Shown here: in pieces, positions 39,131 through 63,801 of the stretch
Numbering within the stretch: the stretch's first letter is position 1
Layout: the number at the start of each line of letters is the position of its first letter
NCBI GenBank assembly: GCA_964016885.1
Contig: OZ024740.1
Span: 228,656,001 to 228,719,801 of the forward strand
Direction of reading: 5' to 3'
DNA: 63,801 nucleotides
From: Eledone cirrhosa
Taxonomy: Eukaryota
Program-made: the position numbers and the translations under genes
The notes under the pieces: generated by a model
What the model was told of the DNA's origin: nothing
Database searches by the model: none
The model's input: the letters and a program-made list of their open reading frames with translations, nothing else

Positions 39131-42100
39131 TATTGGTGGTACTGATAGTGGTAGATATAGTGGTGGTATTGGTGGTAGTAATAGTGGTAGTACAGTGGTA
39201 GTATTGGTGGTAGTAATAGTGGTAGGTATAGTGGTGGTATTAGTGGTAGTAATAGTGGTAGTATAGTGGTGGTATTAGTGGTAGTAATAGTGGTAGGTAT
39301 AGTGGTGGTATTGGTGGTAGTAATAGTGGTAGTATAGTGGTGGTATTAGTGGTAGTAATAGTGGTAGGTATAGTGGTGGTATTAGTGGTAGGTATAGTGG
39401 TAGTATAGTGGTGGTATTAGTGGTAGGTATAGTGGTGGTATTGGTGGTAGTAATAGTGGTAGGTATAGTGGTGGTATTAGTGGTAGTAATAGTGGTAGGT
39501 ATAGTGGTGGTATTAGTGGTAGTATAGTGGTGGTATTAGTGGTGGTATTGGTGGTAGTAATAGTGGTAGGTATAGTGGTGGTAGTAGTGGTAGTAATAGT
39601 GGGGTATTAGTGGTAGTAATAGTGGTAGGTATAGTGGTGGTATTAGTGGTAGTAATAGTGGTAGGTATAGTGGTGGTATTGGTGGTGGTATTGGTGGTAG
39701 TAATAGTGGTAGGTATAGTGGTGGTAGTAGTGGTAGTAATAGTGGTAGGTATAGTGGTGGTATTAGTGGTAGGTATAGTGGTAGTATAGTGGTGGTATTG
39801 GTGGTAGTAATAGTGGTAGGTATAGTGGTGGTAGTAGTGGTAGGTATAGTGGTAGGTATAGTGGTGGTATTAGTGGTAGTAATAGTGGTAGGTATAGTGG
39901 TGGGTAATGGTGGTAGTAATAGTGGTAGGTATAGTGGTGGTATTAGTGGTAGATATAGTGGTGGTATTAGTGGTAGGTATAGTGGTAGTATAGTGGTGGT
40001 ATGGTGGTAGTAATAGTGGTAGGTATAGTGGTGGTATTGGTGGTAGTAATATGGTAGGTATAGTGGTGGTATTAGTGGTAGTAATAGTGGTAGGTATAGT
40101 GGTGGTATTAGTGGTAGTATTAGTGGTAGTATAGTGGTGGTATTAGTGTTAGGTATAGTGGTGGTATTAGTGGTAGTATTAGTGGTAGTATAGTGGTGGT
40201 AATAGTGGTAGGTATAGTGGTGGTATTAGTGGTAGGTATAGTGGTGGTATTAGTGGTAGTAATAGTGGTAGGTATAGTGGTGGTATTAGTGGTGGTATTA
40301 GTGGTAGTAATAGTAGTAGGTATAGTGGTGGTATTAGTGGTGGTAATAGTGGTAGGTATAGTGGTGGTATTAGTGGTAGGTATAGTGGTGGTATTAGTGG
40401 TAGTAATAGTGGTAGGTATAGTGGTGGTATTAGTGATAGGTATTAGTGGTAGTAATAGTGGTAGATATAGTGGTGGTATTAGTGGTAGTAATAGTGGTAG
40501 GTATAGTGGTGGTATTAGTGGTAGTAATAGTGGTAGGTATAGTGGTGGTATTAGTGGTAGTAATAGTGGTAGATATAGTGGTGGTATTAGTGGTAGTAAT
40601 AGTGGTAGGTATAGTGGTGGTATTAGTGGTAGTAATAGTGGTAGGTATAGTGGTGGTATTAGTGGTAGTAATAGTGGTAGGTATAGTGGTGGTATTAGTG
40701 GTAGTAATAGTGGTAGATATAGTGGTAGTATTGGTGGTAGTAATAGTGGTAGGTATAGTGGTGGTATTAGTGGTAGTAATAGTGGTAGGTATAGTGGTGG
40801 TATTAGTGGTAGTAATAGTGGTAGGTATAGTGGTGGTATTAGTGGTAGTAATAGTGGTAGGTATAGTGGTGGTATTAGTGGTAGTATTAGTGGTAGGTAT
40901 AGTGGTGGTATTAGTGGTAGTAATAGTGGTAGGTATAGTGGTGGTATTAGTGGTAGTAATAGTGGTAGGTATAGTGGTGGTATTAGTGGTAGTAATAGTG
41001 GTAGATATAGTGGTAGTATTGGTGGTAGTAATAGTGGTAGGTATAGTGGTGGTATTAGTGGTAGTAATAGTGGTAGGTATAGTGGTGGTATTAGTGGTAG
41101 TAATAGTGGTAGGTATAGTGGTGGTATTAGTGGTAGTAATAGTGGTAGGTATAGTGGTGGTATTAGTGGTGGTATTAGTGGTAGGTATAGTGGTGGTATT
41201 AGTGGTAGTAATAGTGGTAGGTATAGTGGTGGTATTAGTGGTAGTAATAGTGGTAGATATAGTGGTAGTATTGGTGGTAGTAATAGTGGTAGGTATAGTG
41301 GTGGTATTAGTGGTAGTAATAGTGGTAGGTATAGTGGTGGTATTAGTGGTAGTAATAGTGGTAGGTATAGTGGTGGTATTAGTGGTGGTATTAGTGGTAG
41401 GTATAGTGGTGGTATTAGTGGTAGTAATAGTGGTAGGTATAGTGGTGGTATTAGTGGTAGTAATAGTGGTAGATATAGTGGTGGTATTAGTGGTAGTATT
41501 AGTGGTAGGTATAGTGGTGGTATTAGTGGTAGTAATAGTGGTAGGTATAGTGGTGGTATTAGTGGTAGTAATAGTGGTAGTATAGTGGTGGTATTAGTGG
41601 TAGTAATAGTGGTAGTATAGTGGTGGTATTAGTGGTAGGTATAGTGGTAGTATAGTGGTAGGTATAGTGGTGGTATTAGTGGTGGTATTAGTGGTAGGTA
41701 TAGTGGTGGTATTAGTGGTAGTAATAGTGGTAGATATAGTGGTGGTATTAGTGGTAGTAATAGTGGTAGGTATAGTGGTGGTATTAGTGGTAGGTATAGT
41801 GGTAGTATAGTGGTGGTATTAGTGGTAGTAATAGTGGTAGGTATAGTGGTGGTATTAGTGGTAGTAATAGTGGTAGGTATAGTGGTGGTATTAGTGGTAG
41901 GTATAGTGGTGGTATTGGTGGTAGTAATAGTGGTAGGTATAGTGGTGGTATTAGTGGTAGTAATAGTGGTAGGTATAGTGGTGGTATTAGTGGTAGGTAT
42001 AGTGGTAGTATAGTGGTAGGTATAGTGGTGGTATTAGTGGTAGTATTAGTGGTAGGTATAATGGTGGTGTAGTGGTAGTAATAGTGGTAGGTATAGTGGT

Positions 42101-45100
42101 GGTATTAGTGGTAGTAATAGTGGTAGGTATAGTGGTGGTATTAGTGGTAGTAATAGTGGTAGGTATAGTGGTGGTATTAGTGGTAGTAATAGTGGTAGTT
42201 ATAGTGGTGGTATTAGTGGTAGTAATAGTGGTAGGTATAGTGGTGGTATTAGTGGTAGTAATAGTGGTAGGTATAGTGGTGGTATTAGTGGTAGTAATAG
42301 TGGTAGGTATAGTGGTGGTATTAGTGGTAGGTACAGTGGTGGTATTAGTGGTAGTAATAGTGGTAGGTATAGTGGTGGTATTAGTGGTAGGTACAGTGGT
42401 GGTATTAGTGGTAGGTATAGTGGTAGGTATAGTGGTGGTATTAGTGGTAGTAATAGTGGTAGGTATAGTGGTGGTATTAGTGGTAGGTAATAGTGGTAGG
42501 TATAGTGGTGGTATTAGTGGATAGTATTAGTGGTAGGTATAGTGGTGGTATTAGTGGTAGGTATAGTGGTAGGTATAGTGGTGGTATTGGTGGTAGTAAT
42601 AGTGGTAGTATAGTGGTAGGTATAGTGGTGGTATGGTGGTAGTAATATGGTAGGTATAGTGGTGGTAATAGTGGTAGGTATAGTGGTGGTATTAGTGGTA
42701 GGTATAGTGGTGGTATTGGTGGTAGTAATAGTGGTAGTAATAGCTGGTGGTATTAGTGGTAGTTATAGTGGTAGGTATAGTGGTGGTATTAGTGGTAGTA
42801 ATAGTGGTAGGTATAGTGGTGGTATTAGTGGTAGGTATAGTGGTGTATTAGTGGTAGGTATAGTGGTGGTATTAGTGGTAGTAATAGTGGTAGGTATAGT
42901 GGTGGTATTAGTGGTGGTATTAGTGGTAGGTATAATGGTGGTATTAGTGGTGGTATTAGTGGTAGGTATAGTGGTGGTATTAGTGGTAGTAATAGTGGTA
43001 GGTATAGTGGTGGTATTAGTGGTAGTATTAGTGGTAGGTATAATGGTGGTATTAGTGGTGGTATTAGTGGTAGGTATAATGGTGGTATTAGTGGTAGTAA
43101 TAGTGGTAGGTATAGTGGTGGTATTAGTGGTGGTAATAGTGGTAGGTATAGTGGTGGTATTAGTGGTAGTATTAGTGGTAGGTATAATGGTGGTATTAGT
43201 GGTGGTATTAGTGGTAGGTATAGTGGTGGTATTAGTGGTAGTAATAGTGGTAGGTATAGTGGTGGTATTAGTGGTAGTAATAGTGGTAGGTATAGTGGTA
43301 GTATTAGTGGTGGTAATAGTGGTAGGTATAGTGGTGGTATTAGTGGTAGTATTAGTGGTAGGTATAATGGTGGTATTAGTGGTGGTATTAGTGGTAGGTA
43401 TAGTGGTAGTATTAGTGGTGGTATTAGTGGTAGGTATAGTGGTGGGATTAGTGGTAGTAATAGTGGTAGGTATAGTGGTGGTATTAGTGGTGGTATTAGT
43501 GGTAGGTATAATGGTGGTATTGGTGGTGGTATTAGTGGTAGGTATAATGGTGGTATTAGTGGTAGTAATAAGTGGTAGGTATAGTGGTGGTATTAGTGGT
43601 AGTATTAGTGGTAGGTATAATGGTGGTATTAGTGGTGGTATTAGTGGTAGGTATAATGGTGGTATTAGTGGTAGTAATAGTGGTAGGTATAGTGGTGGTA
43701 TTAGTGGTAGTAATAGTGGTAGGTATAGTGGTGGTATTAGTGGTGGTAATAGTGGTAGGTATAGTGGTGGTATTAGTGGTAGTATTAGTGGTAGGTATAA
43801 TGGTGGTATTAGTGGTGGTATTAGTGGTAGGTGTAATGGTGGTATTAGTGGTAGTAATAGTGGTAGGTACAGTGGTGGTATTAGTGGTAGTAATAGTGGT
43901 AGGTATAGTGGTAGTATTAGTGGTGGTAATAGTGGTAGGTATAGTGGTGGTATTAGTGGTAGTATTAGTGGTAGGTATAATGGTGGTATTAGTGGTGGTA
44001 TTAGTGGTAGGTATAGTGGTAGTATTAGTGGTGGTATTAGTGGTAGGTATAGTGGTGGGATTAGTGGTAGTAATAGTGGTAGGTATAGTGGTGGTATTAG
44101 TGGTAGGTATAGTGGTAGGTACAGTGGTGGTATTAGTGGTAGGTATAGTGGTAGGTATAGTGGTGGTATAGTGGTGGTATTAGTGGTAGGTATAGTGGTG
44201 GTATTAGTGGTAGTAATAGTGGTAGGTATAGTGGTAGTATTAGTGGTGGTAATAGTGGTAGGTATAGTGGTGGTATTAGTGGTAGGTATAAGTGGTAGGT
44301 ATAGTGGTGGTATTGGTGGTAGTAATAGTGGTAGGTATAGTGGTGGTATTAGTGGTAGTAATAGTGGTAGGTATAGTGGTGGTATTAGTGGTAGGTATAG
44401 TGGTGGTATTAGTGGTAGTTATAGTGGTAGGTATAGTGGTGGTATTAGTGGTAGTAATAGTGGTAGGTATAGTGATGGTATTAATGGTAGGTATAGTGGT
44501 GGTATTAGTGGTAGGTATAGTGGTGGTATTAGTGGTAGGTATAGTGGTAGGTATAGTGGTAGGTATAGTGGTGGTATTAGTGGTAGGTATAGTGGTAGGT
44601 ATAGTGGTAGGTATTAGTGGTGGTAATAGTGGTAGTATAGTGGTGGTATTAGTGGTAGTATAGTGGTGGTATTAGTGGTAGGTATAGTGGTGGTATTAGT
44701 GGTAGTAATAGTGGTAGTAATAGTGGTGGTATTAGTGGTAGTAATAGTGGTGGTATTAGTGGTGGTAATAGTGGTAGTAATAGTGGTGGTATTAGTGGTA
44801 GGTATAGTGGTGGTGTTAGTGGTAGGTATAGTGGTAGTAATAGTGGTAGGTATAGTGGTGGTATTAGTGGTAGTAATAGTGGTAGTAATAGTGGTGGTAT
44901 TAGTGGTAGGTATAGTGGTGGTGTTAGTGGTAGGTATAGTGGTAGTAATAGTGGTAGGTATAGTGGTGGTATTAGTGGTAGGTATAGTGGTAGGTATAGT
45001 GGTGGTATTAGTGGTAGTAATAGTGGTAGGTATAGTGGTGGTATTAGTGGTAGGTATAGTGGTGGTATTAGTGGTAGTATTAGTGGTAGGTATAGTGGTG

Positions 45101-48100
45101 GTATTAGTGGTAGGTATAGTGGTAGTAATAGTGGTGGTATTAGTGGTAGGTATAGTGGTGGTGTTAGTGGTAGGTATAGTGGTAGTAATAGTGGTAGGTA
45201 TAGTGGTGGTATTAGTGGTAGGTATAGTGGTGGTATTAGTGGTAGTAATAGTGGTAGTAATAGTGGTGGTATTAGTGGTAGGTATAGTGGTGGTGTTAGT
45301 GGTAGGTATAGTGGTAGTAATAGTGGTAGGTATAGTGGTGGTATTAGTGGTAGGTATAGTGGTAGGTATAGTGGTGGTATTAGTGGTAGGTATAGTGGTG
45401 GTATTAGTGGTAGTATTAGTGGTAGGTATAGTGGTAGTATTAGTGGTAGGTATAGTGGTAGGTATAGTGGTGGTATTAGTGGTAGGTATAGTGGTAGGTA
45501 TAGTGGTGGTATTAGTGGTAGTGATAGTGGTAGGTATAGTGGTGGTATTAGTGGTAGGTATAGTGGTGGTATTAGTGGTAGGTATAGTGGTGGTGTAGTG
45601 GTAGTAATAGTGGTAGGTATAGTGGTGGTATTAGTGGTAGGTATAGTGGTAGGTATAGTGGTGGTGTAGTGGTAGTAATAGTGGTAGGTATAGTGGTGGT
45701 ATTAGTGGTAGGTATAGTGGTAGGTATAGTGGTGGTGTAGTGGTAGTATTAGTGGTAGGTATAGTGGTGGTATTAGTGGTAGCTATTAGTGGTAGGTATA
45801 ATGGTGGTATTAGTGGTAGTATTAGTGGTAGGTATAGTGGTGTGTAGTGGTAGTAATAGTGGTAGGTATAGTGGTGGTATTAGTGGTAGGTATAGTGGTA
45901 GGTATAGTGGTGGTATTAGTGGTAGTAATAGTGGTAGGTACAGTGGTGGTATTAGTGGTAGGTATAGTGGTGGTATTAGTGGTAGTAATAGTGGTAGGTA
46001 TAGTGGTGGTATTAGTGGTAGTATTAGTGGTAGGTATAGTGGTGGTATTAGTGGTAGTAATAGTGGTAGGTATAGTGGTGGTATTAGTGGTAGTAATAGT
46101 GGTAGGTATAGTGGTGGTATTAGTGGTAGTATTAGTGGTAGGTATAGTGGTAGGTATAGTGGTGGTGTAGTGGTAGTATTAGTGGTAGGTATAGTGGTGG
46201 TGTAGTGGTAGTAATAGTGGTAGTAATAGTGTTAGGTATAGTGGTGGTATTAGTGGTAGTAATAGTGGTAGGTATAGTGGCTGGTATTAGTGGTAGGTAT
46301 AGTGGTAGGTATAGTGGTGGTATTAGTGGTAGTATTAGTGGTAGGTATAATGGTGGTGTAGTGGTAGTAATAGTGGTAGGTATAGTGGTGGTATTAGTGG
46401 TAGTAATAGTGGTAGGTATAGTGGTGGTATTAGTGGTAGTAATAGTGGTAGGTATAGTGGTAGGTATAGTGGTGGTATTAGTGGTAGTATTAGTGGTAGG
46501 TATAGTGGTGGTATTAGTGGTAGGTATAGTGGTAGGTATAGTGGTGGTATTAGTGGTAGTATTAGTGGTAGGTATAGTGGTGGTATTAGTGGTAGTAATA
46601 GTGGTAGGTATAGTGGTGGTATTAGTGGTAGTAATAGTGGTAGGTATAGTGGTGGTATTAGTGGTAGGTACAGTGGTGGTATTAGTGGTAGTAATAGTGG
46701 TAGGTATAGTGGTGGTATTAGTGGTAGGTACAGTGGTGGTATTAGTGGTAGGTATAGTGGTAGGTATAGTGGTGGTGTAGTGGTAGTAATAGTGGTAGGT
46801 ATAGTGGTGGTATTAGTGGTGGTAATAGTGGTAGGTATAGTGGTGGTATTAGTGGTAGTATTAGTGGTAGGTATAGTGGTGGTATTAGTGGTAGGTATAG
46901 TGGTGGTATTGGTGGTGGTATTAGTGGTAGGTATAGTGGTAGGTATAGTGGTGGTATTAGTGGTAGGTACAGTGGTGGTATTAGTGGTAGTAATAGTGGT
47001 AGTAATAGTGGTAGGTATAGTGGTGGTATTGGTGGTAGTAATATGGTAGGTATAGTGGTGGTAATAGTGGTAGTAATAGTGGTAGGTATAGTGGTGGTAT
47101 TGGTGGTAGTAATAGTGGTAGTATAGTGGTGGTATTAGTGGTAGTTATAGTGGTAGGTATAGTGGTGGTATAGTGGTAGTAATAGTGGTAGGTATAGTGG
47201 TGGTATTAGTGGTAGGTATAGTGGTGGTATTAGTGGTAGGTATAGTGGTGGTATTAGTGGTAGTAATAGTGGTAGGTATAGTGGTGGTATTAGTGGTAGT
47301 ATTAGTGGTAGGTATAATGGTGGTATTAGTGGTGGTATTAGTGGTAGGTATAATGGTGGTATTAGTGGTAGTAATAGTGGTAGGTATAGTGGTGGTATTA
47401 GTGGTGGTAATAGTGGTAGGTATAGTGGTGGTATTAGTGGTAGTAATAGTGGTAGGTATAGTGGTGGTATTAGTGGTAGTAATAGTGGTAGGTATAGTGG
47501 TGGTATTAGTGGTAGTAATAGTGGTAGGTACAGTGGTGGTATTAGTGGTAGTAATAGTGGTAGGTATAGTGGTAGTATTAGTGGTGGTAATAGTGGTAGG
47601 TATAGTGGTGGTATTAGTGGCTAGTAATAGTGGTAGGTATAGTGGTGGTATTCAGTGGTAGTATTAGTGGTAGGTATAATGGTGGTATTAGTGGTGGTAT
47701 TAGTGGTAGGTATAATGGTGGTATTAGTGGTAGTAATAGTGGTAGGTATAGTGGTGGTATTAGTGGTGGTAATAGTGGTAGGTATAGTGGTGGGATTAGT
47801 GGTAGTAATAGTGGTAGGTATAGTGGTGGTATTAGTGGTAGGTATAGTGGTAGGTACAGTGGTGGTATTAGTGGTAGGTATAGTGGTAGGTATAGTGGTG
47901 GTATAGTGGTGGTATTAGTGGTAGGTATAGTGGTGGTATTAGTGGTAGTAATAGTGGTAGGTATAGTGGTAGTATTAGTGGTGGTAATAGTGGTAGGTAT
48001 AGTGGTGGTATTAGTGGTAGGTATAGTGGTGGTATTAGTGGTGGTAATAGTGGTAGGTATAGTGGTGGTATTAGTGGTAGGTATAGTGGTAGGTATAGTG

Positions 48101-50460
48101 GTGGTATTGGTGGTAGTAATAGTGGTAGGTATAGTGGTGGTATTAGTGGTAGTAATAGTGGTAGGTATAGTGGTGGTATTAGTGGTAGGTATAGTGGTGG
48201 TATTAGTGGTAGTTATAGTGGTAGGTATAGTGGTGGTATTAGTGGTAGGTATAGTGGTGGTATTAGTGGTAGTAATAGTGGTAGGTATAGTGATGGTATT
48301 AATGGTAGGTATAGTGGTGGTATTAGTGGTAGGTATAGTGGTGGTATTAGTGGTAGGTATAGTGGTAGGTATAGTGGTAGGTATAGTGGTGGTATTAGTG
48401 GTAGGTATAGTGGTAGGTATAGTGGTGGTATTAGTGGTAGGTAATAGTGGTAGTATAGTGGTGGTATTAGTGGTGGTAATAGTGGTAGGTATAGTGGTGG
48501 TATTAGTGGTAGGTATAGTGGTGGTATTAGTGGTAGGTATAGTGGTGGTATTAGTGGTAGTAATAGTGGTAGTAATAGTGGTGGTATTAGTGGTAGGTAT
48601 AGTGGTGGTATTAGTGGTGGTAATAGTGGTAGTATAGTGGTGGTATTAGTGGTAGGTATAGTGGTGGTATTAGTGGTAGTAATAGTGGTAGTCAATAGTG
48701 GTGGTATTAGTGGTAGGTATAGTGGTGGTGTTAGTGGTAGGTATAGTGGTAGTAATAGTGGTAGGTATAGTGGTGGTATTAGTGGTAGGTATAGTGGTGG
48801 TATTAGTGGTAGTAATAGTGGTAGTAATAGTGGTAGGTATTAGTGGTAGGTATAGTGGTAGTAATAGTGGTAGGTATAGTGGTGGTATTAGTGGTAGGTA
48901 TAGTGGTAGGTATAGTGGTGGTATTAGTGGTAGGTATAGTGGTGGTATTAGTGGTAGTATTAGTGGTAGGTATAGTGGTGGTATTAGTGGTAGGTATAGT
49001 GGTAGTAATAGTGGTGGTATTAGTGGTAGTATAGTGGTGGTGTTAGTGGTAGGTATAGTGGTAGTAATAGTGGTAGGTATAGTGGTGGTATTAGTGGTAG
49101 GTATAGTGGTGGTATTAGTGGTAGTAATAGTGGTAGTAATAGTGGTGGTATTAGTGGTAGGTATAGTGGTGGTGTTAGTGGTAGGTATAGTGGTAGTATT
49201 AGTGGTAGGTATAGTGGTGGTGTTAGTGGTAGGTTATAGTGGTAGGTATAGTGGTAGGTATAGTGGTGGTATTAGTGGTAGGTATAGTGGTGGTATTAGT
49301 GGTAGTATTAGTGGTAGGTATAGTGGTAGTATTAGTGGTAGGTATAGTGGTAGGTATAGTGGTGGTAATAGTGGTAGGTATAGTGGTGGTATTAGTGGTA
49401 GTATTAGTGGTAGGTATAGTGGTGGTATTAGTGGTAGTGATAGTGGTAGGTATAGTGGTGGTATTAGTGGTAGGTATAGTGGTGGTATTAGTGGTAGGTA
49501 TAGTGGTGGTGTAGTGGTAGTAATAGTGGTAGGTATAGTGGTGGTATTAGTGGTAGGTATAGTGGTAGGTATAGTGGTGGTGTAGTGGTAGTAATAGTGG
49601 TAGGTATAGTGGTGGTATTAGTGGTAGGTATAGTGGTAGGTATAGTGGTGGTGTAGTGGTAGTATTAGTGGTAGGTATAGTGGTGGTATTAGTGGTAGTA
49701 TTAGTGGTAGGTATAATGGTGGTATTAGTGGTAGTATTAGTGGTAGGTATAGTGGTGGTGTAGTGGTAGTAATAGTGGTAGGTATAGTGGTGGTATTAGT
49801 GGTAGGTATAGTGGTAGGTATAGTGGTGGTATTAGTGGTAGTAATAGTGGTAGGTACAGTGGTGGTATTAGTGGTAGGTATAGTGGTGGTATTAGTGGTA
49901 GTAATAGTGGTAGGTATAGTGGTGGTATTAGTGGTAGTATTAGTGGTAGGTATAGTGGTGGTATTAGTGGTAGTAATAGTGGTAGGTATAGTGGTGGTAT
50001 TAGTGGTAGTAATAGTGGTAGGTATAGTGGTGGTATTAGTGGTAGTATTAGTGGTAGGTATAGTGGTAGGTATAGTGGTGGTGTAGTGGTAGTATTAGTG
50101 GTAGGTATAGTGGTGGTATTAGTGGTAGGTATAGTGGTAGGTATAGTGGTGGTGTAGTGGTAGTAATAGTGGTAGGTATAGTGGTGGTATTAGTGGTAGG
50201 TATAGTGGTAGGTATAGTGGTGGTGTAGTGGTAGTAATAGTGGTAGGTATAGTGGTGGTATTAGTGGTAGTATTAGTGGTAGGTATAGTGGTGGTATTAG
50301 TGGTAGTATTAGTGGTAGGTATAGTGGTAGGTATAGTGGTGGTGTAGTGGTAGTATTAGTGGTAGGTATAGTGGTGGTATTAGTGGTAGTATTAGTGGTA
50401 GGTATAGTGGTGGTATTAGTGGTAGTATTAGTGGTAGGTATAGTGGTGGTATTAGTGGTA
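39131..50460 (+). repeat. 12-bp-unit satellite with a preferred 36-bp trimer TAGTGGTAGGTA-TAGTGGTGGTAT-TAGTGGTAGTAA (left arm of palindrome)
   Basis: Read directly. The strand is almost free of C, and the units are shuffled in variable order. Confidence 0.97.
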
Positions 50461-51687
50461 GGTATGAGTGGTAGGTAGAGTGGTGGTATTAGTGGTTGTA
50501 TAGTGGGAGGTATAGTGGTGGTATTAGTGGTAGTAATAGTGGTAGGTATAGTGGTGGTATTGGTGGTAGTAATAGTGGTAGGTATAGTGGGTGGTATTAG
50601 TGGGTAGGTATTGGGGTAGGTTTAGTGGTGGTATTATGGTAGGATAGAATGGGTAGGTATAGTGGTGGGTATTGTGGTTGGTAGTGGGTAGGTAGGGGTG
50701 GTTGGTGGTGGGGGTGGATTGTGGGGTGTATAGTGGGTAGGTAGTGTGGTGGTAGTGGGGGGAGTTGTGGTGGAGTAGGGGTGGTATGGGGGTGGTAGAG
50801 GGGGAGGTAGAGGGGGTGGGTGTGGGGGTGGTTGTGGGTGGTGGTGATGGAGGTGGTGGGGTGGGTGGTAGTGGTGGTGTGGGGTGGGAGTGGTGGTTGT
50901 GTGGGTGGTGGAGTTGTGGTGGGGGTGGGTGTGGGGTGGTATGGGGGAGGTTGGGGTGGGTTTGTGGGGGGTGGTGTGGTGGTAGTGGGTGGTAGGTGGG
51001 AGGGTTTGGGGTGTAGAGGGGTGGTGAGGGTGAGGGTTGGTGGTTGGTAGTGGTGGGGAGGGGGGGTGTGGGGGGGGGTGGTGGGGGTGGGTGTGGGGGT
51101 GGAGAGGGGGGGGTGGGGTGGGATAGGGGGGGGTGGTGGGGGTGGTAGTGGGGTGGTTGTGGGGGTGGGTGAGGGGGTGGGTGTGGGGGGGGTGGTGGGG
51201 GTGGTTGTGGGGTGGGTGGTGGGGGGGTGGAGGGGGTGGTTGTGGGGGTGGGTGTGGGGGGGGTGGTGGGGGTGGTTGTGGGGGTGGAGTGGGGGAGGTG
51301 GTGGGGGGGGTGGTGGGGGTGGGTGTGGGGGGGGTGGTGGGGGTGGTTGTGGGGGTGGGTGGTGGGGGGGGTGGTGGGGGTGGGTGTGGGGGTGGGTGTG
51401 GGGGGGGTGGTGGGGGTGGTGGTGGGGGTGGGTGTTGGGGGGGTGGTGGGGGTGGGTGTGGGGGGGGTGGTGGGGGTGGTTGTGGGGGTGGTGGTGGGGG
51501 GGGTGGTGGGGGTGGGTGTGGGGGGGGTGGTGGGGGTGGTTGTGGGGGTGGGTGTGGGGGGGGTGTGGGGGTGGTTGTGGGGGTGGGTGTGGGGGGGGTG
51601 GTGGGGGTGGTTGTGGGGGCTGGGTGTGGGGGGGGTGGTGGGGGTGGTTGTGGGGGTGGGTGTGGGGGGGGTGGTGGGGGTGGTTGT
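50461..51687 (+). other. G-rich tract that is the same 12/36-bp array under the substitution A>T, T>G, G>G (probable base-calling artefact)
   Basis: Applying the substitution to the trimer gives GTGGGGGTGGGT-GTGGGGGGGGTG-GTGGGGGTGGTT, which is the unit seen at ~51200-51687. Onset is gradual and noisy from ~50460. Confidence 0.85.
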
Positions 51688-54600
51688 AATAACTAGTGTA
51701 AGTAATAGTGGTAGTAATAGTTGTAATAATAGTGTAAGTAATAGTGGTAGTAATAGTTGTAATAATAGTGTAAGTAATAGTGGTAGTAATAGTTGTAATA
51801 ATAGTGTAAGTAATAGTTGTAATAATAGTTGTAGTAATAGTGGTAGTAATAGTTGTAATAATAGTGTAAGTAATAGTTGTAATAATGGTGTAAGTAATAG
51901 TTGTAGTAATAGTTGTAATAATAGTGTAAGTAATAGTGTTAGTAATAGTTGTAATAATAGTTGTAAGTAATAGTGGTAGTAATAGTTGTAATAATAGTGT
52001 AAGTAATAGTTGTAATAATAGTTGTAGTAATAGTGTAAGTAATAGTGGTAGTAATAGTTGTAATAATAGTGTAAGTAATAGTGGTAGTAATAGTTGTAAT
52101 AATAGTTGTAAGTAATAGTGGTAGTAATAGTTGTAATAATAGTGTAAGTAATAGTGTAAGTAATAGTGGTAGTAATAGTGGTAGTAATAGTTGTAATAAT
52201 AGGGTAAGTAATAGTTGTAATAATAGTGTAAGTAATAGTGTAAGTAATAGTTGTAATAATAATTGTAATAATAGTGTAAGTAATAGTGGTAGTAATAATT
52301 GTAAGTAATAGTGTAAGTAATAGTGGTAGTAATAGTGGTAATAATAGTGTAAGTAATAGTTGTAGTAATAGTATAATAATAGTGTAAGTAATAGTGTAAG
52401 TAATAGTGTTAGTAATAGTGTAAGTAATAGTTGTAATAATAGTGTAGTAATAGTGGTAGTAATAGTTGTAATAATAGTGTAGTAATAGTGGTAGTAATAA
52501 TTGTAATAATAGTGTAAGTAATGTGGTAGTAATAATTGTAATAATAGTGTAAGTAATAGTGGTAGTAATAGTGGTAATAATAGTGTAAGTAATGTGGTAG
52601 TAATAATTGTAATAATAGTGTAAGTAATAGTGTAGTAATAGTGGTAGTAATAATTGTAAACTAGTGTAAGTAATAGTGGTAGTAATAGTTGTAATAATAG
52701 TGTAAGTAATGGTGGTCGTAATGGTTGTAATAATAGTGTAAGTAATAGTGTAAGTAATAGTTGTAATAATAGTGTAGTAATAGTGGTAGTAATAATTGTA
52801 ATAATAGTGTAAGTAATAGTGGTAGTAATAGTTGTAATAATAGTGTAAGTACTAGTGGTAGTAATAGTTGTAATAATAGTGTAAGTAATAGTGTAAGTAA
52901 TAGTTGTAATAATAGTGTAAGTAATAGTTGTAGTAATAGTTGTAATAATAGTGTAAGTAATAGTTGTAGTAATAGTTGTAATAATAGTGTAAGTAATAGT
53001 TGTAGTAATAGTATAATAATAGTGTAAGTAATAGTGTAAGTAATAGTTGTAGTAATAGTTGTAATAATAGTGTAAGTAATAGTTGTAGTAATAGTTGTAA
53101 TAATAGTGTAAGTAATAGTGGTAGTAATAGTATAATAATAGTGTAAGTAATAGTGTAAGTAATAGTTGTAATAATAGTGTAAGTAATAGTGGTAGTAATA
53201 GTATAATAATAGTGTAAGTACTAGTGTAAGTAATAGTTGTAATAATAGTGTAAGTAATAGTTGTAGTACTAGTATAATAATAGTGTAAGTAATAGTGTAA
53301 GTAATAGTTGTAGTAATAGTTGTAATAATAGTGTAAGTAATAGTGGTAGTAATAGTTGTAATAATAGTGTAAGTAATAGTGGTAGTAATAGTTGGTAATA
53401 ATAGTGTAAGTAATAGTTGTAGTAATAGTTGTAATAATAGTGTAAGTAATAGTGGTAGTAATAGTTGTAATAATAGTGTAAGTAATAGTTGTAATAATAG
53501 GGTAAGTAATAGTGGTAGTAATAGTTGTAATAATAGTGTAAGTAATAGTGTAAGTAATAGTTGTAATAATAGTGTAAGTAATAGTGGTAGTAATAGTATA
53601 ATAATAGTGTAAGTAATAGTTGTAGTAATAGTTGTAATAATGGTGTAAGTAATAGTTGTAGTAATAGTTGTAATAATAGTGTAAGTAATAGTTGTAGTAA
53701 TAGTATAATAATAGTGTAAGTAATAGTGTAAGTAATAGTTGTAATAATAGTGTAAGTAATAGTGGTAGTAATAGTATAATAATAGTGTAAGTAATAGTGT
53801 AAGTAATAGTTGTAATAATAGTGTAAGTAATAGTGGTAGTAATAGTATAATAATAGTGTAAGTAATAGTTGTAATACATAGTGTAAGTAATAGTTGTAAT
53901 AATAGTGTAAGTAATAGTGATAGTAATAGTTGTAATAATAGTGTAAGTAATAGTTGTAGTAATAGTTGTACATAATAGTGTAAGTAATAGTTGTAATAAT
54001 AGTGTAAGTAATAGTGTAAGTAATAGTTGTAGTAATAGTGTAAGTAATAGTTGTAGTACTAGTTGTAATAATAGTGTAAGTAATAGTTGTAATACTAGTG
54101 TAAGTAATAGTGTAAGTAATAGTGTAAGTAATAGTTATAATAATAGTGTAAGTAATAGTTGTAGTAATAGTGTAAGTAATAGTTATAATAATAGTGTACG
54201 TAATAGTTGTAATAATAGTGGTAGTAATAGTGGTAGTAATAGTTGTAATAATAGTGTAAGTAATAGTTGTAATAATAGTGTAAGTAATAGTGGTAGTAAT
54301 AGTGTAAGTACTAGTTATAATAATAGTGTAAGTAATAGTTGTACATAATAGTGGTAGTAATAGTGTAAGTAATAGTTGTAATAATAGTGTAAGTAATAGT
54401 TGTAGTAATAGTTGTAATAATAGTGTAAGTAATAGTTGTAATAATAAGTGTAAGTAATAGTGTAAGTAATAGTTGTAATAATAGTGTAAGTAATAGTGGT
54501 AGTAATAGTGTAAGTAATAGTTGTAAGTAATAGTGGTAGTAATAGTGGTAGTAATAGTTGTAATAATAGTGTAAGTAATAGTTGTAATAATAGTGTAAGT

Positions 54601-57600
54601 AATAGTGGTAGTAATAGTGTAAGTAATAGTTATAATAATAGTGTAAGTAATAGTTGTAATAATAGTGGTAGTAATAGTGGTAGTAATAGTTGTAATAATA
54701 GTGTAAGTAATAGTTGTAATAATAGTGTAGTAAATAGTGGTAATAATAGTTGTACTAATAGGTGTAAGTAATAGTTGTAATAATAGTGGTAGTAATAGTG
54801 GTAGTAATAGTTGTAATAATAAGTGTAAGTAATAGTTGTAATAATAGTGTAAGTAATAGTTGTAATAACTAGTGTAAGTAATAGTGGTAATAATAGTTGT
54901 AATAATAGTGTAGTAATAGTGGTAATAATAGTTGTAATAATAGTGTAAGTAATAGTGTAAGTAATAGTTGTAATAATAGTGTAAGTAATAGTGTAAGTAC
55001 TAGTGTAAGTAATCGTTGTAATAATAGTGTAAGTAATAGTTGTAATAATAGTGTAAGTAATGGTTGTAATGATAGTGTAAGTAATAGTGGTAGTAATAGT
55101 TGTAATAATAGTGTAAGTAATAGTTGTAATAATAGTGTAAGTAATAGTGTTAGTAATAGTTGTAATAATAGTGTAAGTAATAGTTGTAATCATAGTGGTA
55201 AGTAATAGTGGTAGTAATAGTTGTAATAATAGTGTAAGTAATAGTGGTAGTAATAATTGTAATAATAGTGTAAGTAATAGTGTAAGTAATAGTTGTAATA
55301 ATAGTGTAAGTAATAGTGGTAATAATAGTTGTAATACATAGTGTAAGTAATAGTTGTAATAATAGTGTAAGTAACTAGTGGTAATAATAGTTGTAGTAAT
55401 CGTGTAAGTACATAGTGGTAGTAATAGTTGTAATAATAGTGTAAGTAATAGTTGTAATAATAGTGTAATAATAGTGTAAGTAATAGTGTAAGTAATAGTT
55501 GTAATAATAGGGTAAGTAATAGTGTAAGTAATAGTTGTAATAATAGTGTAAGTAATAGTGGTAGTAATAGTTGAAATAATAGTGTAAGTAATAGTGGTAA
55601 TAATAGTTGTAATAATAGTGTAAGTAATAGTGGTAAGGTAATAGTTGTAATACTGGTGTAAGTAATAGTTGTAATAATAGTTGTACATAATGGTGTAAGT
55701 AATAGTTGTAGTAATAGTTGTAATAATAGTGTAAGTAATAGTGTAGTAATAGTTGTATAATAGTGTAAGTAATAGTGGTAATAATAGTTGTAGTAATAGT
55801 GTAAGTAATAGTGGTAGTAATAGTTGTAATAATAGGGTAAGTAATAGTGGTAGTAATAGTTGTAATAATAGTGTAAGTAATAGTGGTAGTAATAGTTGTA
55901 ATAATAGTGTAAGTAATAGTGGTAGTAATAGTTGTAATAATAGTGTAAGTAATAGTGGTAATAATAGTTGTAATAATAGTGTAAGTCATAGTGTAGTAAT
56001 AGTTGTAATAATGGTGTAAGTAATAGTTGTAATAATAGTTGTAATAATGGTGTAAGTAATAGTTGTAGTAATAGTTGTAATAATAGTGTCAGTAATAGTG
56101 GTAGTAATGTTGTAATAATAGTGTAAGTAATAGTTGTAATAATAGTGTAAGTAATAGTTGTAATAATAGTGTAAGTAATAGTGGTAGTAATAGTTGTAAT
56201 AATAGTGTAAGTAATAGTGTTAGTAATAGTTGTAATAATAGTGTAGTAATAGTGGTAGTAATAATTGTAATAATAGTGTAAGTAATAGTGGTAGTAATAG
56301 TGGTAATAATAGTGTCAGTAATGTGGTAGTAATAATTGTAATAATAGTGTAAGTAATAGTGGTAGTAATAGTGGTAGTAATAGTTGTAATCAATAGGGTA
56401 AGTAATAGTTGTAATAATAGTGTAAGTAATAGTGTAAGTAATAGTTGTAATAATAATTGTAATAATAGTGTAAGTAATAGTTGTAATAATAGTGTAAGTA
56501 ATAGTTGTAGTAATAGTTGTAATAAATAGTGTAAGTAATAGTGGTAATAATAGTTGTAATAATAGTGTAAGTAATAGTGGTAGTAATAGTATAATAATAG
56601 TGTAAGTAATAAGTGTAAGCTAATAGTTGTAATAATAGGGTAAGTAATAGTTGTACTAATAGTGTAAGTAATAGTGGTAGTAATAGTTGTATAATAGGGT
56701 ACAGTAATAGTTGTAATAATAGGTGTAAGTAATAGTGGTAGTAATAGTTGTAATAATAGTGTAAGTAATAGTGGTAGTAATAGTTGTAATAATAGTGTAA
56801 GTAATAGTTGTAGTAATAGTTGTAATAATAGTGTAAGTAATAGTGTAAGTAATAGTTGTAATAATAGTGTAAGTAATAGTTGTAGTAATAGTTGTAATAA
56901 TAGTGTAAGTAATAGTGTAAGTAATAGTGGTAGTAATAGTTGTAATAATAGTGTAAGTAATAGTGGTAGTAATAGTTGTAATAATAGTGTAAGTAAATAG
57001 TGGGTAGTAATAGTATAATAATGGTGTAAGTAATAGTTGTAGTAATAGTTGTAATAATAGTGTAAGTAATAGTGTAAGTAATAGTTGTAATAATAGTGTA
57101 AGTAATAGTGGTAGTAATAGTTGTAATAATAGTGTAAGTTATAGTGGTAGTAATAGTGGTAGTACTAGTATAATAATAGTGTAAGTAATAGTTGTAGTAA
57201 AGTATAATAATATAGTGTAAGTAATAGTGTAAGTAATAGTTGTAGTAATAGTTGTAATAATAGTGTAAGTAATAGTGGTAGTAATAGTTGTAATAATAGT
57301 GTAAGTAATAGTGGTAGTAATAGTTGTAATAATAAGTGTAAGTAATAGTTGTAGTAATAGTTGTACTAATAGTGTAAGTAATAGTGGTAGTAATAGTTGT
57401 AATAATAGTGTACAGTAATAGTTGTAATAATAGGGTAAGTAATAGTGGTAGTAATAGTTGTAATAATAGTGTAAGTAATAGTGTAAGTAATAGTTGTAAT
57501 AATAGTGTAAGTAATAGTGGTAGTAATAGTATAATAATAGTGTAAGTAATAGTTGTAGTAATAGTTGTAATAATGGTGTAAGTAATAGTTGTAGTAATAG

Positions 57601-60600
57601 TTGTAATAATAGTGTAAGTAATAGTTGTAGTAATAGTATAATAATAGTGATAAGTAATAGTGTAAGTAATAGTTGTAATAATAGTGTAAGTAATAGTGAG
57701 TAAGTAATAGTATAATAATAGTGTAAGTAATAGTGTAAGTAATAGTTGTACTAATAGTGTAGTAATAGTGGTAGTAATAGTATAATAATAGGTGTAAGTA
57801 ATAGTTGTAATAATAGTGTAAGTAATAGTTGTAATAATAGTGTAAGTAATAGTGATAGTAATAGTTGTAATAATAGTGTAAGTAATAGTGTAAGTAATAG
57901 TTGTAATAATAGTGTAAGTAATAGTGTAAGTAATAGTTGTAGTAATAGTGTAAGTAATAGTTGTAGTAACTAGTTGTAATAATAGTGTAAGTAATAGTTG
58001 TAATAATAGTGTAAGTAATAGTGTAAGTAATAGTTGTAATAATAGTGTAAGTAATAGTGGTAGTAATAGTGTAAGTAATAGTTATAATAATAGTGTAAGT
58101 AATAGTTGTAATAATAGTGGTAGTAATAGTGGTAGTAATAGTTGTAATAATAGTGTAAGTAATAGTTGTAATAATAGTGTAAGTAATAGTGGTAGTAATA
58201 GTGTAAGTAATAGTTATAATAATAGTGTAAGTAATAGTTGTACATAATAGTGGTAGTAATAGTGTAAGTAATAGTTGTAATAATAGTGTAAGTAATAGTT
58301 GTAGTAATAGTTGTAATAATAGTGTAAGTAATAGTTGTAATAATAGTGTAAGTAATCGTGGTAGTAATAGTTGTACATATAGTGTAAGTAATAGTGTAAG
58401 TAATAGTTGTAATAATAGTGTAAGTAATAGTGGTAGTAATAGTGTAAGTAATAGTTATAATAATAGTGTAAGTAATAGTTGTAATAATAGTGGTAGTAAT
58501 AGTGGTAGTAATAGTTGTAATACATAGTGTCAAGTAATAGTGGTAGTACTAGTGTAAGTAATAGTTATAATAATAGTGTAAGTAATAGTTGTAATAATAG
58601 TGGTAGTAATAGTGGTAATAATAGCTTGTAATAATAGTGGTAGTAATAGTTGTAATAATAGTGGTAGTCAATAGTGGTAGTAATAGTTGTAATAATAGTG
58701 TAAGTAATAGTTGTAATAATAGTGTAAGTAATAGTTGTAATAATAGTGTAGTAATAGTGGTAATAATAGTTGTAATAATAGGTGTAAGTAATAGTGTAAG
58801 TAATAGTAGTAAATAATAGTGTAAGTAATAGCTGTAAGTAATAAGTGTAAGTAATAGTTGTAATAATAGTGTAAGTAATAGTTGTAATAATAGTGTAGTA
58901 CTGGTTGTAATGATAGTGTAAGTAATAGTGGTAGTAATAGTTGTAATAATAGTGTAAGTAATAGTGTTAGTAATAGTTGTAATAATAAGTGTAAGTAATA
59001 GTTGTAATAATAGTGTAAGTAATAGTGGTAGTAATAGTTGTAATAATAGTGTAAGTAATAGTGGTAGTAATAATTGGTCATAATAGTGTAAGTAATAGTG
59101 TAAGCTAATAGTTGTAATAATAGTGTAAGTAATAGTGGTAATAATAGTTGTAGTAATAGTGTAAGTAATAGTGGTAGTAATAGTTGTAATAATAGTGTAC
59201 GTAATAGTTGTAATAATAGTGTAATAATAGTGTAAGTAATAGTGTAAGTAATAGTTGTAATAATCGGGTAAGTAATAGTGTAAGTACTAGTTGTAATCAA
59301 TAGTGTAAGTAATAGTGGTAGTAATAGTTGACAATAATAGTGTAAGTAATAGTTGTAATAATAGTTGTAGTAATAGTGTAAGTAATAGTTGTAATAATAG
59401 TTGTAATAATGGTGTAAGTAATAGTTGTAGTAATAGTTGTAATAACTAGTGTAAGTAATAGTGGTAATAATAGTTGTAGTAATAGTGTAAGTACTAGTGG
59501 TAGTAATAGTTGTAATAATCGGGTAAGTAATAGTGGTAGTAATAGTTGTAATAATGGTGTAAGTCATAGTTGTAATCATAGTTGTAAATAATGGTGTAAG
59601 TAATAGTTGTAGTAATAGTTGTAATAATAGTGTAAGTAATAGTGGTAATAATAGTTGTAATAATAGTGTAAGTAATCGTGGTAGTAACTAGTTGTAATAA
59701 TAGTGTAAGTAATCGTGGTAGTAATAGTTGTAATAATGGTGTAAGTACTAGTTGTAATAATAGTTGTAATAATGGTGTAAGTAATAGTTGTAGTAATAGT
59801 TGTAATACATAGTGTAAGTAATAGTGGTAGTAATAGTTGTAATAATGGAGTAAGTAATCGTTGTAATAATAATTGTAATAATGGTGTAAGTAATAGTTGT
59901 ACTAATAGTTGTAATAATAGTGTAAGTAATAGTGGTAGTAATAGTTGACATATAGGTAAGTAATAGTTGTAATAATAGTTGTAGTAATAGTGTAAGTAAT
60001 AGTTGTAATCATAGTTGTAATAATGGTGTAAGTAATAGTTGTAGTAATAGTTGTAATAATAGTGTAAGTAATAGTGGTAATAATAGTTGTAGTAATAGTG
60101 TAAGTAATAGTGGTAGTAATAGTTGTAATAATAGTGTAAGTAATAGTGGTAGTCATAGTTGTACTAATAGTGTAAGTAATAGTTGTAATAATAGTTGTAA
60201 TAATGGTGTAAGTAAATAGTTGTAGTAATAGTTGTAATAATAGTGTAAGTAATAGTGGTAGTAATAGTTGTAATAATAGTGTAAGTAATAGTGGTAGTAA
60301 TAGTTGTAATCATGGTGTAAGTAATAGTTGTAATAATAGTTGTAATAATGGTGTACAGTAATAGTTGTAGTAATAGTTGTAATAATAGTGTAAGTAATAG
60401 TGGTAGTCATAGTTGTATAATAGTGTAAGTAATAGTTGTAATAATCGTTGTAATAATGGTGTAAGTAATAGTTGTAATACTAGTTGTAATAATAGTGTCA
60501 GTAATAGTGGTAGTAATAGTTGTAATAATAAGTGTAAGTAATAGTTGTAATAATAGTGTAAGTAATAGTTGTAATAATCGTGTAAGTAATAGTGGTAGTA

Positions 60601-61815
60601 ATAGTTGTAATAATAGTGTAAGTAATAGTGTTAGTAATAGTTGTAATAATAGTGTAGTAATAGTGGTAGTAATAATTGTAATAATAGTGTAAGTAATAGT
60701 AGTACTAATAGTGTAAGTAATAGTGGTAATAATCGTGTAAGTAATGTGGTAGTAATAATTGTAATACTAAGTGTAAGTAATAGTGGTAGTAATATTGAAG
60801 TACTAATTGTATAAGTACTAAGTAAGTGGTAAGTAATAGTTGTAATAATAGTGTAAGTAATAGTTGTACGTACTAGTTGTACTAATAGTGTAAGTAATCG
60901 TGGTAATACATAGTTGTAATACATAGTGTAAGTAATAGTGGTAGTACATAGTATAACTAATAGTGTAAGTAATAGTGTCAGTATAGTTGTACACTAATAG
61001 GGTAAGTACTAGTTGTAATCATAGTGTAAGTACTAGTGGTAGTAATAGTTGTAATAATAGGGTAACGTAATAGTTGTAATAATAGTGTAAGTCACTAGTG
61101 GTAGTAATCGTTGTACATAATAGTGTAAGTACATAGTGGTAGTAATAGTTGTAATAATAGTGTAACGTAATAGTGGTAGTATAGTTGTAATCATAGTGTG
61201 AGTAATAGTGGTAGTACATACGTTGTAATCATAGTGTAAGTAATAGTGGTAGTACATAGTGTAATAATAGTGTAAGTCACTAGTGGTAGTAATAGTTGTA
61301 ATAAATAGTGTACGTAATAGTGGTAGTACTAGTATAATCATGTGTCAGTAATCGTAGTAGTACAAGTTGTAACTAATAGTGTACGGTACCTAGTGTAGTA
61401 ATAGTGTCAGTACTCGTTGTAATACATAGTGTAAGTAATAGTGGTAGTACTCGTTGTACATAATAGTGTAAGTCAATAGTGGTAGTAACTAATTGTAACT
61501 ATAGTGTAAGTAATAGTTGTAATAATAGTGTAAGTAATAGTGGTAGTAATAGTTGTCATACTAGTGTACGTACTAGTGGTAGTACTAGTTGTACATAATA
61601 GTGCTGGTCATAGTGTAAGTACTAGTTGTCATAATCGTGTAGTAATAGAGGTAGTCAACTCGTTGTCCTCATAGTGTGAGTCATAGTGGTCGTAATCGTG
61701 TAATAATCAGTGTACAGTAATCGTAGTACTACATAGTTGTAACTAACTAGTTCAACTAGTGAGTACTAGTGTAAGTAACCTCGTTGTACTCACTATTGTA
61801 GTAAAGTGGTAGTAC
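51688..61815 (-). other. Apparent (TAGTGGTAGTAA-TAGTTGTAATAA-TAGTGTAAGTAA)n array that is the reverse complement of ~41.6-51.7 kb under C>A, A>T, T>G, G>G
   Basis: Unit order and rare variants mirror the left arm at coordinate sums of ~103,360 (see findings). Confidence 0.88.
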
Positions 61816-63801
61816 ACTAATACCACCACTATATCTACCACTATTACTACCTACTAATACCCACCACTATACTACCACTAATTACTACCACTAATACCAC
61901 CACTATACCTACCACTATTCTCACACTAATACACCACTATACCTACCACTATACTACACTATATACCACCACTATAACTACCACTATTACTACCACTAAT
62001 ACCACCACTATACCTACCCACTAATACTACCACTAATACCACCACATATACCTACCACTAGTCCGACCACTAATACCACCACTATACTACCACTATTACT
62101 ACCACTTAATACCACCACTATACCTACCACTATTACTACACACTAATACCACCATCTATACCTACACTATTACTACCACTAATACATACCACTATACCTA
62201 CCACTATTACTACCACTAATACCACCACTATACCTACCACTAATACTACCACTAATACCACCACTTATACCTACCACTATTACTACCACTAATACCACCA
62301 CTATACCTACCACTATTACTACCACTAATACCACCACTATACCTACCACTATTACTACCACTAATACACCACTATACCTACCACTATTACTACCACCAAT
62401 ACTACCACTATACTACACTATTACTACCACAATACACCACTATACCTACCACTATTACTACACTAATACCACCACTATACCTACACTATTACTACCACTA
62501 ATACCACCACTATACCTACCACTATTACTACACTCTAATACCACCACTATACCTACCACTATTACTACCACTAATACCACCACTATACCTACTACCACTA
62601 TTACTAACCACTAATACCACCACTATACCTACCACTATTACTACCACTAATACCACCACTATACCTACCACTATTACTACCACTAATACACCACTATATC
62701 TACCACTATTACTACCACTAATACCACCACTATACCTACCACTATTACTACCACTAATACCACCACTATACCTACCACTATTACTACCACTAATACCACC
62801 ACTATACCTACCACTATTACTACCACTAATACCACCACTATACCTACCACTATTACTACCACCTAATACCACCACTATACCTACCACTATTACTACCACT
62901 AATACCACCACTATACCTACCACTATTACTACCACTAATACCACCACTATATCTACCACTATTACTACCACTAATACCACCACTATACCTACCACTATTA
63001 CTACCACTAATACCACCACTATACCTACCACTAATACCAACCACTATACCTACCACTATTACCACCACTAATACCACCACTATACCTACTACTATTACTA
63101 CCACTAATACCACCACTAATACACCACTATACCTACCACTATTACTACCACTAATACCACCACTATACCTACCACTAATACCACCACTATACCTACCACT
63201 ATTACCACCACTATACTACCACTAATACTACCACTAATACCACCACTATACCTAACACTAATACCACCACTATACTACCACTAATACTACCACTAATACC
63301 ACCACTATACCTACCACTATTACTACCACTAATACCACCACTATACCTACCATATTACTACCACCAATACCACCACTATACCTACCACTATTACTACCAC
63401 CAATACCACCACTATACTACCACTATACCTACCACTAATACCACCACTATATCTACCACTAATACCACCACTATACCTACCACTATTACTACCACCATTA
63501 CCACCACTATACCTACCACTATTACTACCACTAATACCACCACTATACCTACCACTATACCTACCACTACTACCACCACTATACCTACCACTATTACTAC
63601 CACCAATACCACCACTATACTACCACTATACCTACCACTAATACCACCACTATACCTACCACTATTACTACCCACTACTACCACCACTATACCTACCACT
63701 ATTACTACCACCAATACCACCACCAATACCACCACTATACCTACCACTATTACTACACTAATACCACCACTATACCTACCACTATTACTACCACTAATAC
63801 C
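61816..63801 (-). repeat. Plain reverse-complement copy of ~39603-41590 (right arm of palindrome, runs off the window)
   Basis: The window end is the reverse complement of sequence starting at 39603. Diagnostic variants pair up: TAGTGTTAGG 40144 / CCTAACACTA 63251, AGTAATATGG ~40045 / CCATATTACT ~63350, TAGTAGTAGG 40311 / CCTACTACTA 63085. Confidence 0.96.

Follow-up and report, generated by a model that had tools for sequence, protein, structure and literature searches.

A 24-kb satellite mirror at a contig end of the Eledone cirrhosa assembly is very likely a single hairpin read with a one-step base-call shift

The 24-kb mirror at the right end of the analysed DNA very likely goes back to a single hairpin molecule, sequenced as one long read that was left uncorrected, and is no palindrome of the chromosome. 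With a probability of roughly 0.77 we assign it to a hairpin carrying one adapter, which PacBio sequencing read over and over in the same direction while the base-caller slipped by one brightness level. That the block is an artefact of some kind is close to certain.

Sequence and scaffold layout

The window, i.e. the whole stretch of DNA that was analysed, comprises 63,801 nucleotides (OZ024740.1, positions 228,656,001-228,719,801, forward strand). Positions above 63,801 are given as window-extended coordinates. The last 24.7 kb of the window are made up of a single satellite of 12-mer words using A, G and T, arranged in a higher-order repeat with a 713-bp exact match at offset 3,912. The following features were distinguished:

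39,124-50,460 (+): left part of the C-less satellite, correctly called; 12-mer words, 36-bp unit, ~3.9-kb higher-order repeat, C 0.17%
45,445-51,687 (+): stretch present again at the start of the next contig, a false duplication (offset +18,553 to +18,557)
50,460-51,687 (+): G-rich zone, the forward satellite under the shift (A>T, T>G, G>G); mixed at 50,460-51,069, locked at 51,070-51,687
51,640-51,682 (+): hairpin loop of 43 nt, its forward-strand sequence present once
51,683-51,687 (no strand): inverted microhomology of 5 nt, true letters TAATA/TATTA, readable on either arm
51,688-61,814 (-): ciphered mirror arm (on the plus strand C>A, A>T, T>G, G>G); locked at 51,688-60,699, mixed at 60,700-61,814
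61,815-63,801 (-): mirror tail, correctly called, stopping at the contig end
39,603-63,801 (-): putative single palindromic read of 24,199 bases; the tail ends at partner 39,603, the presumed left end

A gap of 200 N begins at 63,802, directly after the contig end. Past it the same satellite is found again, correctly called and in its original orientation, and unique DNA starts at 74,122 (window-extended). The overlap of this next contig with the left arm begins at 45,445, with exact matches of up to 1,097 bp and 11 differing columns in 5,016, and the contig passes the turning point without folding. As it both overlaps the left arm and crosses the turn unfolded, the true array has a length of about 16.4 kb (16,442 bp, computed from the contig overlap), and about 18.6 kb of the scaffold (18,557 bases: duplicated overlap, mirror arm and gap) is false. 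The next contig may represent the same or the other haplotype.

Other repeats were found around the array. A 38-bp satellite fills window positions 1-20,840 and the whole of the 40 kb upstream (at least 60.8 kb), with a 5.7-kb higher-order duplication at 98.2%. A broken non-LTR retrotransposon lies on the minus strand at 26,591-29,640, having its endonuclease (PF03372, PF14529) and reverse transcriptase (PF00078, E 1.3e-21) in different frames, together with a weak PHD match below the cut-off. Positions 37,478-37,671 belong to a CAG/AAC-rich minisatellite family, relatives of which occur at 258 or more genomic sites. Finally, an inverted block of 3.95 kb is located at 90,153-94,101 (window-extended; chromosome about 228,746,150-228,750,100) within a G/T-rich array of the 51-bp type. 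The letter shift is absent from this block, and at its right junction the arms of a 10-bp inverted repeat enclose 5 nt. That the block folds back from neighbouring sequence was rejected, the best match there being only 92%; judged from its sequence, it looks like a real inversion inside the satellite.

Extent and register of the mirror

The first-pass annotation had described 61.8-63.8 kb as the reverse complement of 39.6-41.6 kb. This holds, as 61,815-63,801 matches the reverse complement of 41,599-39,603 at 96.5%, with coordinate sums of 103,414 and 103,404, and other registers reach at most 90.7%. The interior, 51,688-61,814, was tested as 600-bp pieces (n=17) against the enciphered reverse complement of the left arm. 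For 15 of the 17 pieces the best left-arm match lay on the mirror diagonal (sums 103,359-103,415), in agreement with the proposal that the symmetry continues inward after decoding. Identities were 96.5-99.3% for 13 of these pieces, and 90.0% and 85.6% for the outermost two. For the two innermost pieces the left partner is the G-rich zone, which is itself miscalled and hence unreadable; their identities to the next contig are 99.7% and 99.2%.

The mirror sums are not constant: they start at about 103,320 at the loop and climb to 103,415. The axis lies near 51,661, and the centre first placed at ~51,687 turned out to be the position where the letters switch. From the earlier estimate of 'at least 24 kb' the 24 kb can be kept, and the suggestion of more has to be dropped, since the mirror ends at 63,801 where the gap begins. 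Nor does it reach 37-39 kb or the transposon cluster, an extension that had been put forward for checking. A mirror running into 37-39 kb and the retrotransposon was rejected, the minus-strand matches within -40/+80 kb being simple-repeat matches at 72-76% only. Within the same range, no mirrored copy of 20.8-39.7 kb was found beyond the window, i.e. the unique flank is not mirrored.

One-letter shift

All 256 one-letter maps were scored by recovery of 20-mers, separately for the G-rich zone and for the AGTAAT zone that follows it. In the AGTAAT zone only maps with A>T, C>A and T>G recovered any 20-mers (79%), G>G being the best fourth assignment, and in the G-rich zone only A>T, T>G, G>G did so (87.5%). 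A single table fits both zones, and written for the minus strand it reads G>T, T>A, A>C, C>C. A context-dependent (k-mer) cipher, which had been our first fit, was superseded by this one-letter map.

The shift is nearly complete in the locked part of the mirror arm (51,688-60,699), where 8,833 of 8,945 aligned bases are shifted, 107 unshifted and 5 otherwise substituted, with 57 insertions versus 16 deletions. Before the turn the shifted letter prevails in 134 of 138 7-mer contexts (the exceptions have 1-3 observations), and after it in 36 of 36. Where A and C merge into runs of C, the expected run length is kept in 96 of 98 cases, including all twelve runs of eight. Followed along the minus strand in steps of 500 bases, the shifted fraction is 0.4, 0.4, 1.8, 6.5, 86, 91 and 97%, rising to 100% at the turn, and past the turn 99.7, 80, 22 and 0%. 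The shift accordingly sets in ~2 kb into the C-less strand, remains locked up to the turn and is gone about 1.2 kb after it. As the turn is approached, the unshifted residue becomes steadily lower (Spearman 0.81 against coordinate, 20 bins), and in the mirror tail 32 of 42 substitutions already have the direction of the shift.

Each base moves one step on a single ordered scale and the number of bases is preserved, as expected of a slip between levels. The context-dependent conversion of motifs seen in nanopore repeat-calling errors is a different pattern; here the map is free of context and homopolymer counts are kept. The cipher reflects a caller that registers bases as discrete events and slips by one step in a fixed order.

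The ciphered 48-mer has 18 copies in the 3-Gb assembly, all forward and all in this zone, and the true 48-mer has 113+11 copies, all at this locus. A search of the genome for further cases of the letter shift by a generic G/T pattern gave none among the matches listed, but the pattern was insensitive: of its 1,533 matches, those listed were mostly poly-G and did not include the zone itself.

A consensus or polishing step that mixed forward and reverse-complement copies, or a real sister satellite, would leave a block with the three letters of the forward array (A, G, T), and the ciphered strand does have these, as well as one 12-mer word in common with it. Such an origin is nevertheless most improbable. 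The block reproduces the position-specific private variants of its mirror partner under one fixed map, and a G>T>A>C ladder with a gradual onset and a gradual end is produced neither by mixing nor by mutation. The sister satellite was rejected on its absence elsewhere in the genome.

Structure of the turn

'Essentially no spacer' had been reported between the arms; what is present instead is the 43-nt loop together with the 5 nt of microhomology, and the forward strand extends 48 nt past the point from where the copy-back starts. The loop length rests on counting identical 36-bp units and would be 7 nt if the count were one unit off. Among 3,097,344 possible junctions with loops of up to 200 nt, 0.57% have a microhomology of at least 5 nt. 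No adapter-like insert is found in the junction sequence.

Going by its sequence, the turn is built as expected when the 3' end of the G-rich strand primes on itself. A polymerase copying that hairpin would give out the minus strand, which is the direction of the error trend, and a self-primed plus strand as template would place the loop on the strand where it is found. Error trend and loop strand together suggest that the minus strand is probably the direction of reading. The order implied earlier, with the left arm as template read first and the noisier right arm second, is thus probably to be reversed.

Evidence for a single molecule

The left arm and the next contig differ mainly by single-base indels (10 of 11 differences). 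At 10 of the 11 positions the mirror arm cleanly sides with the next contig, the eleventh having an adjoining gap, and we conclude that the left arm carries uncorrected read errors. Five of the 11 are an inserted C on the plus strand, i.e. an inserted G on the probable read strand, which is the lowest rung of the ladder. A tie between this excess and the ladder is only suggestive, and insertions in the locked zone are not biased towards G (10 of 57).

A loss of one base, seen once across both copies of the array, falls exactly between 39,602 and 39,603, and 39,603 is the partner of the last base of the contig, 63,801. This one missing base suggests that the layout switches at 39,603 to a read of 24,199 bases with symmetric ends.

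We have weighed these data against a genuine fold-back inverted duplication in the chromosome (breakage-fusion-bridge), or an inverted triplication across the gap, in which one badly called read was assembled. The loop and microhomology are the anatomy of a self-primed fold-back, and a short spacer with inverted microhomology would be found at such an inversion, though self-priming in vitro leads to the same expectation. The order forward, reverse, gap, forward is also formally that of an inverted triplication, the gap being of unspecified size. A genuine inversion is still very unlikely. The arms are uncorrected, with 11 private errors in 5 kb, which points to an absence of supporting reads; the decoded arm diverges from the next contig by no more than read error; the read ends appear mirror-symmetric; only one arm is shifted; and a mirrored unique flank is absent. 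The transition stretch (61,650-61,815) had 0 records in four of four sets, namely three contig sets from one sample with this species label and a RAD run, which is weak evidence as there was no matched positive control, the RAD run is no test and contigs can show presence only. The three contig sets contain 0.55-0.61 of the words sampled from 26,000-34,200.

The breakage-fusion-bridge alternative of the first-pass annotation consequently finds no support, the flank being unmirrored, the arms uncorrected and the contig ending inside the array. Its preferred reading, a fold-back of a single molecule built into the assembly, is strengthened by the gap, the unfolded contig, the uncorrected errors on both arms and the restriction of the ciphered 48-mer to this locus.

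Proposed mechanism

The proposed scheme presumes that PacBio base signals follow the order C>A>T>G and that their levels are calibrated adaptively. In it, the end of a fragment inside the array would fold back on the 5 nt of A/T microhomology and be extended by a polymerase, either during library repair or in a single cell in vivo, giving an end closed without an adapter. With a single adapter at the other end the molecule would form one circle, every pass of which has the same direction: first the G-rich C-less strand, then the loop, then the C-rich strand, corresponding to the minus strand of the window. Once C has been missing for ~2 kb, the level estimate, being adaptive, might treat A as the top level, so that G>T, T>A and A>C. 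The slipped reading is a self-consistent sequence of A, C and T and could therefore stay locked until real C pulses return past the turn and bring the calibration back within about 1.2 kb. An identical slip in every pass would be retained by the consensus at about 99% fidelity. Overlapping the left flank, the read could be neither corrected nor extended and would terminate the contig, and scaffolding would then set the true continuation after the 200-N gap.

The read length of ~24.2 kb and the indel-dominated error of 0.2% fit CCS reads, for which a concordance of 99.8%, a richness in indels, 0.03% of reads missing one adapter and 0.1% with low-quality runs are given (10.1101/519025). The DeepConsensus preprint, in the part at hand, confirms only that there are four per-base signal-to-noise values. 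In our literature search neither the brightness order C>A>T>G nor an error of this kind was found described; supplements on bioRxiv could mention such HiFi errors. Two published observations count against PacBio: fold-backs make up 0.55-0.6% of nanopore gDNA reads and are virtually missing from the one Revio HiFi set reported (PMC12870357), and the satellite miscalls described are specific to nanopore, with HiFi serving as the clean control (PMC9414165; 10.64898/2026.07.13.738322).

The block could instead, with a clearly lower probability, be a nanopore fold-back read, in which template and complement follow each other without an adapter and a neural base-caller miscalls the repeat after a current offset; this too would be an artefact. 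Fold-backs are common in ONT gDNA and mostly have little or no spacer (PMC12870357), poor calls and a current uplift after inverted junctions are on record (PMC7229812), strand-specific repeat miscalls are already known (PMC9414165), and the mirror tail has an error of 3.5% with many indels. What makes nanopore unlikely is the character of the shift, which is letter-wise and free of context over 138 7-mer contexts and on both strands, with merged homopolymers of 8 bases counted exactly. Accuracy after decoding is highest right at the junction (99.7%), and the locked zone has more insertions than deletions (57 versus 16), contrary to PMC7229812, where bases are missed from the junction onwards. 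A plus-strand read would also need the shift to start 1.2 kb ahead of the turn.

An extension of the slip to the dropout of HiFi reads in GA-rich DNA was considered and not adopted, as an 18-kb AAGGAG block was covered throughout and the source argues for triplex formation (10.64898/2026.07.13.738322, as far as its text was available).

Implications

The feature is not genomic; it is a clean and possibly undescribed signature of sequencing error. It has no biological meaning, and a chromosome palindrome should not be claimed here. About 11 kb of the sequence is invented and would be catalogued as two new satellites.

We give even odds to a broader proposition, namely that this is an undescribed general failure mode of HiFi sequencing, in which calls on long C-less strands are displaced by one brightness level (G>T>A>C) and all passes of a one-adapter hairpin agree. 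If so, phantom satellites of high confidence and false palindromes would enter public assemblies at contig ends. In ordinary molecules with two adapters, passes would be lost to this slip and coverage would become thinner in three-letter arrays, and the platform affected is the one that serves as truth set for repeat miscalls. The fixed letter map would at the same time provide a simple genome-wide detector, one substitution table applied to contig ends.

Comparison with known systems

CCS reads that miss one SMRTbell adapter, and those with low-quality runs at microsatellites (10.1101/519025), resemble the present case in length, in the indel-dominated error of 0.2% and in the palindromic layout to be expected. 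The turn differs from a missing adapter in having a genomic loop with microhomology and no ciphered adapter-like insert, and the source, in the part available, gives neither the mechanism nor a letter map.

Nanopore errors in telomeres and satellites (PMC9414165; 10.64898/2026.07.13.738322) likewise produce a strand-specific phantom repeat that can enter an assembly, and a one-sided strand count is seen here as well (18 forward, 0 reverse). As these sources describe them, such errors convert motif to motif, sometimes with a change of length, between k-mers of similar current, and are absent from HiFi. The present ladder, in contrast, acts on single letters irrespective of context and keeps every variant and the base count. 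PMC12758392 reports a long-read bias at simple satellites, and the available part of that source gives no letter map.

The drop in quality on nanopore inverted duplicates (PMC7229812) is similar in that a failure of base-calling is tied to an inverted junction. There, quality drops after the junction and bases are missed, whereas here the decoded sequence is most accurate at the junction, on both sides of which the shift occurs.

On the features that can be tested from an assembly, the block belongs to the class of fold-back reads. As in the fold-back artefacts addressed by Breakinator (PMC12870357), the second segment aligns with the same locus in opposite orientation, no more than 200 bp away (the 43-nt loop), no adapter intervenes, and the site is crossed unbroken by independent sequence, here the contig after the gap. 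The turn lies at the midpoint of the read in that class, and in our case 63,801 pairs with 39,603, the presumed read end. The published class is mainly ONT and virtually absent from the HiFi data tested, and its description, in the part of the source available, includes no letter substitution. It also concerns reads, whereas the read described here has been built into a chromosome-scale assembly.
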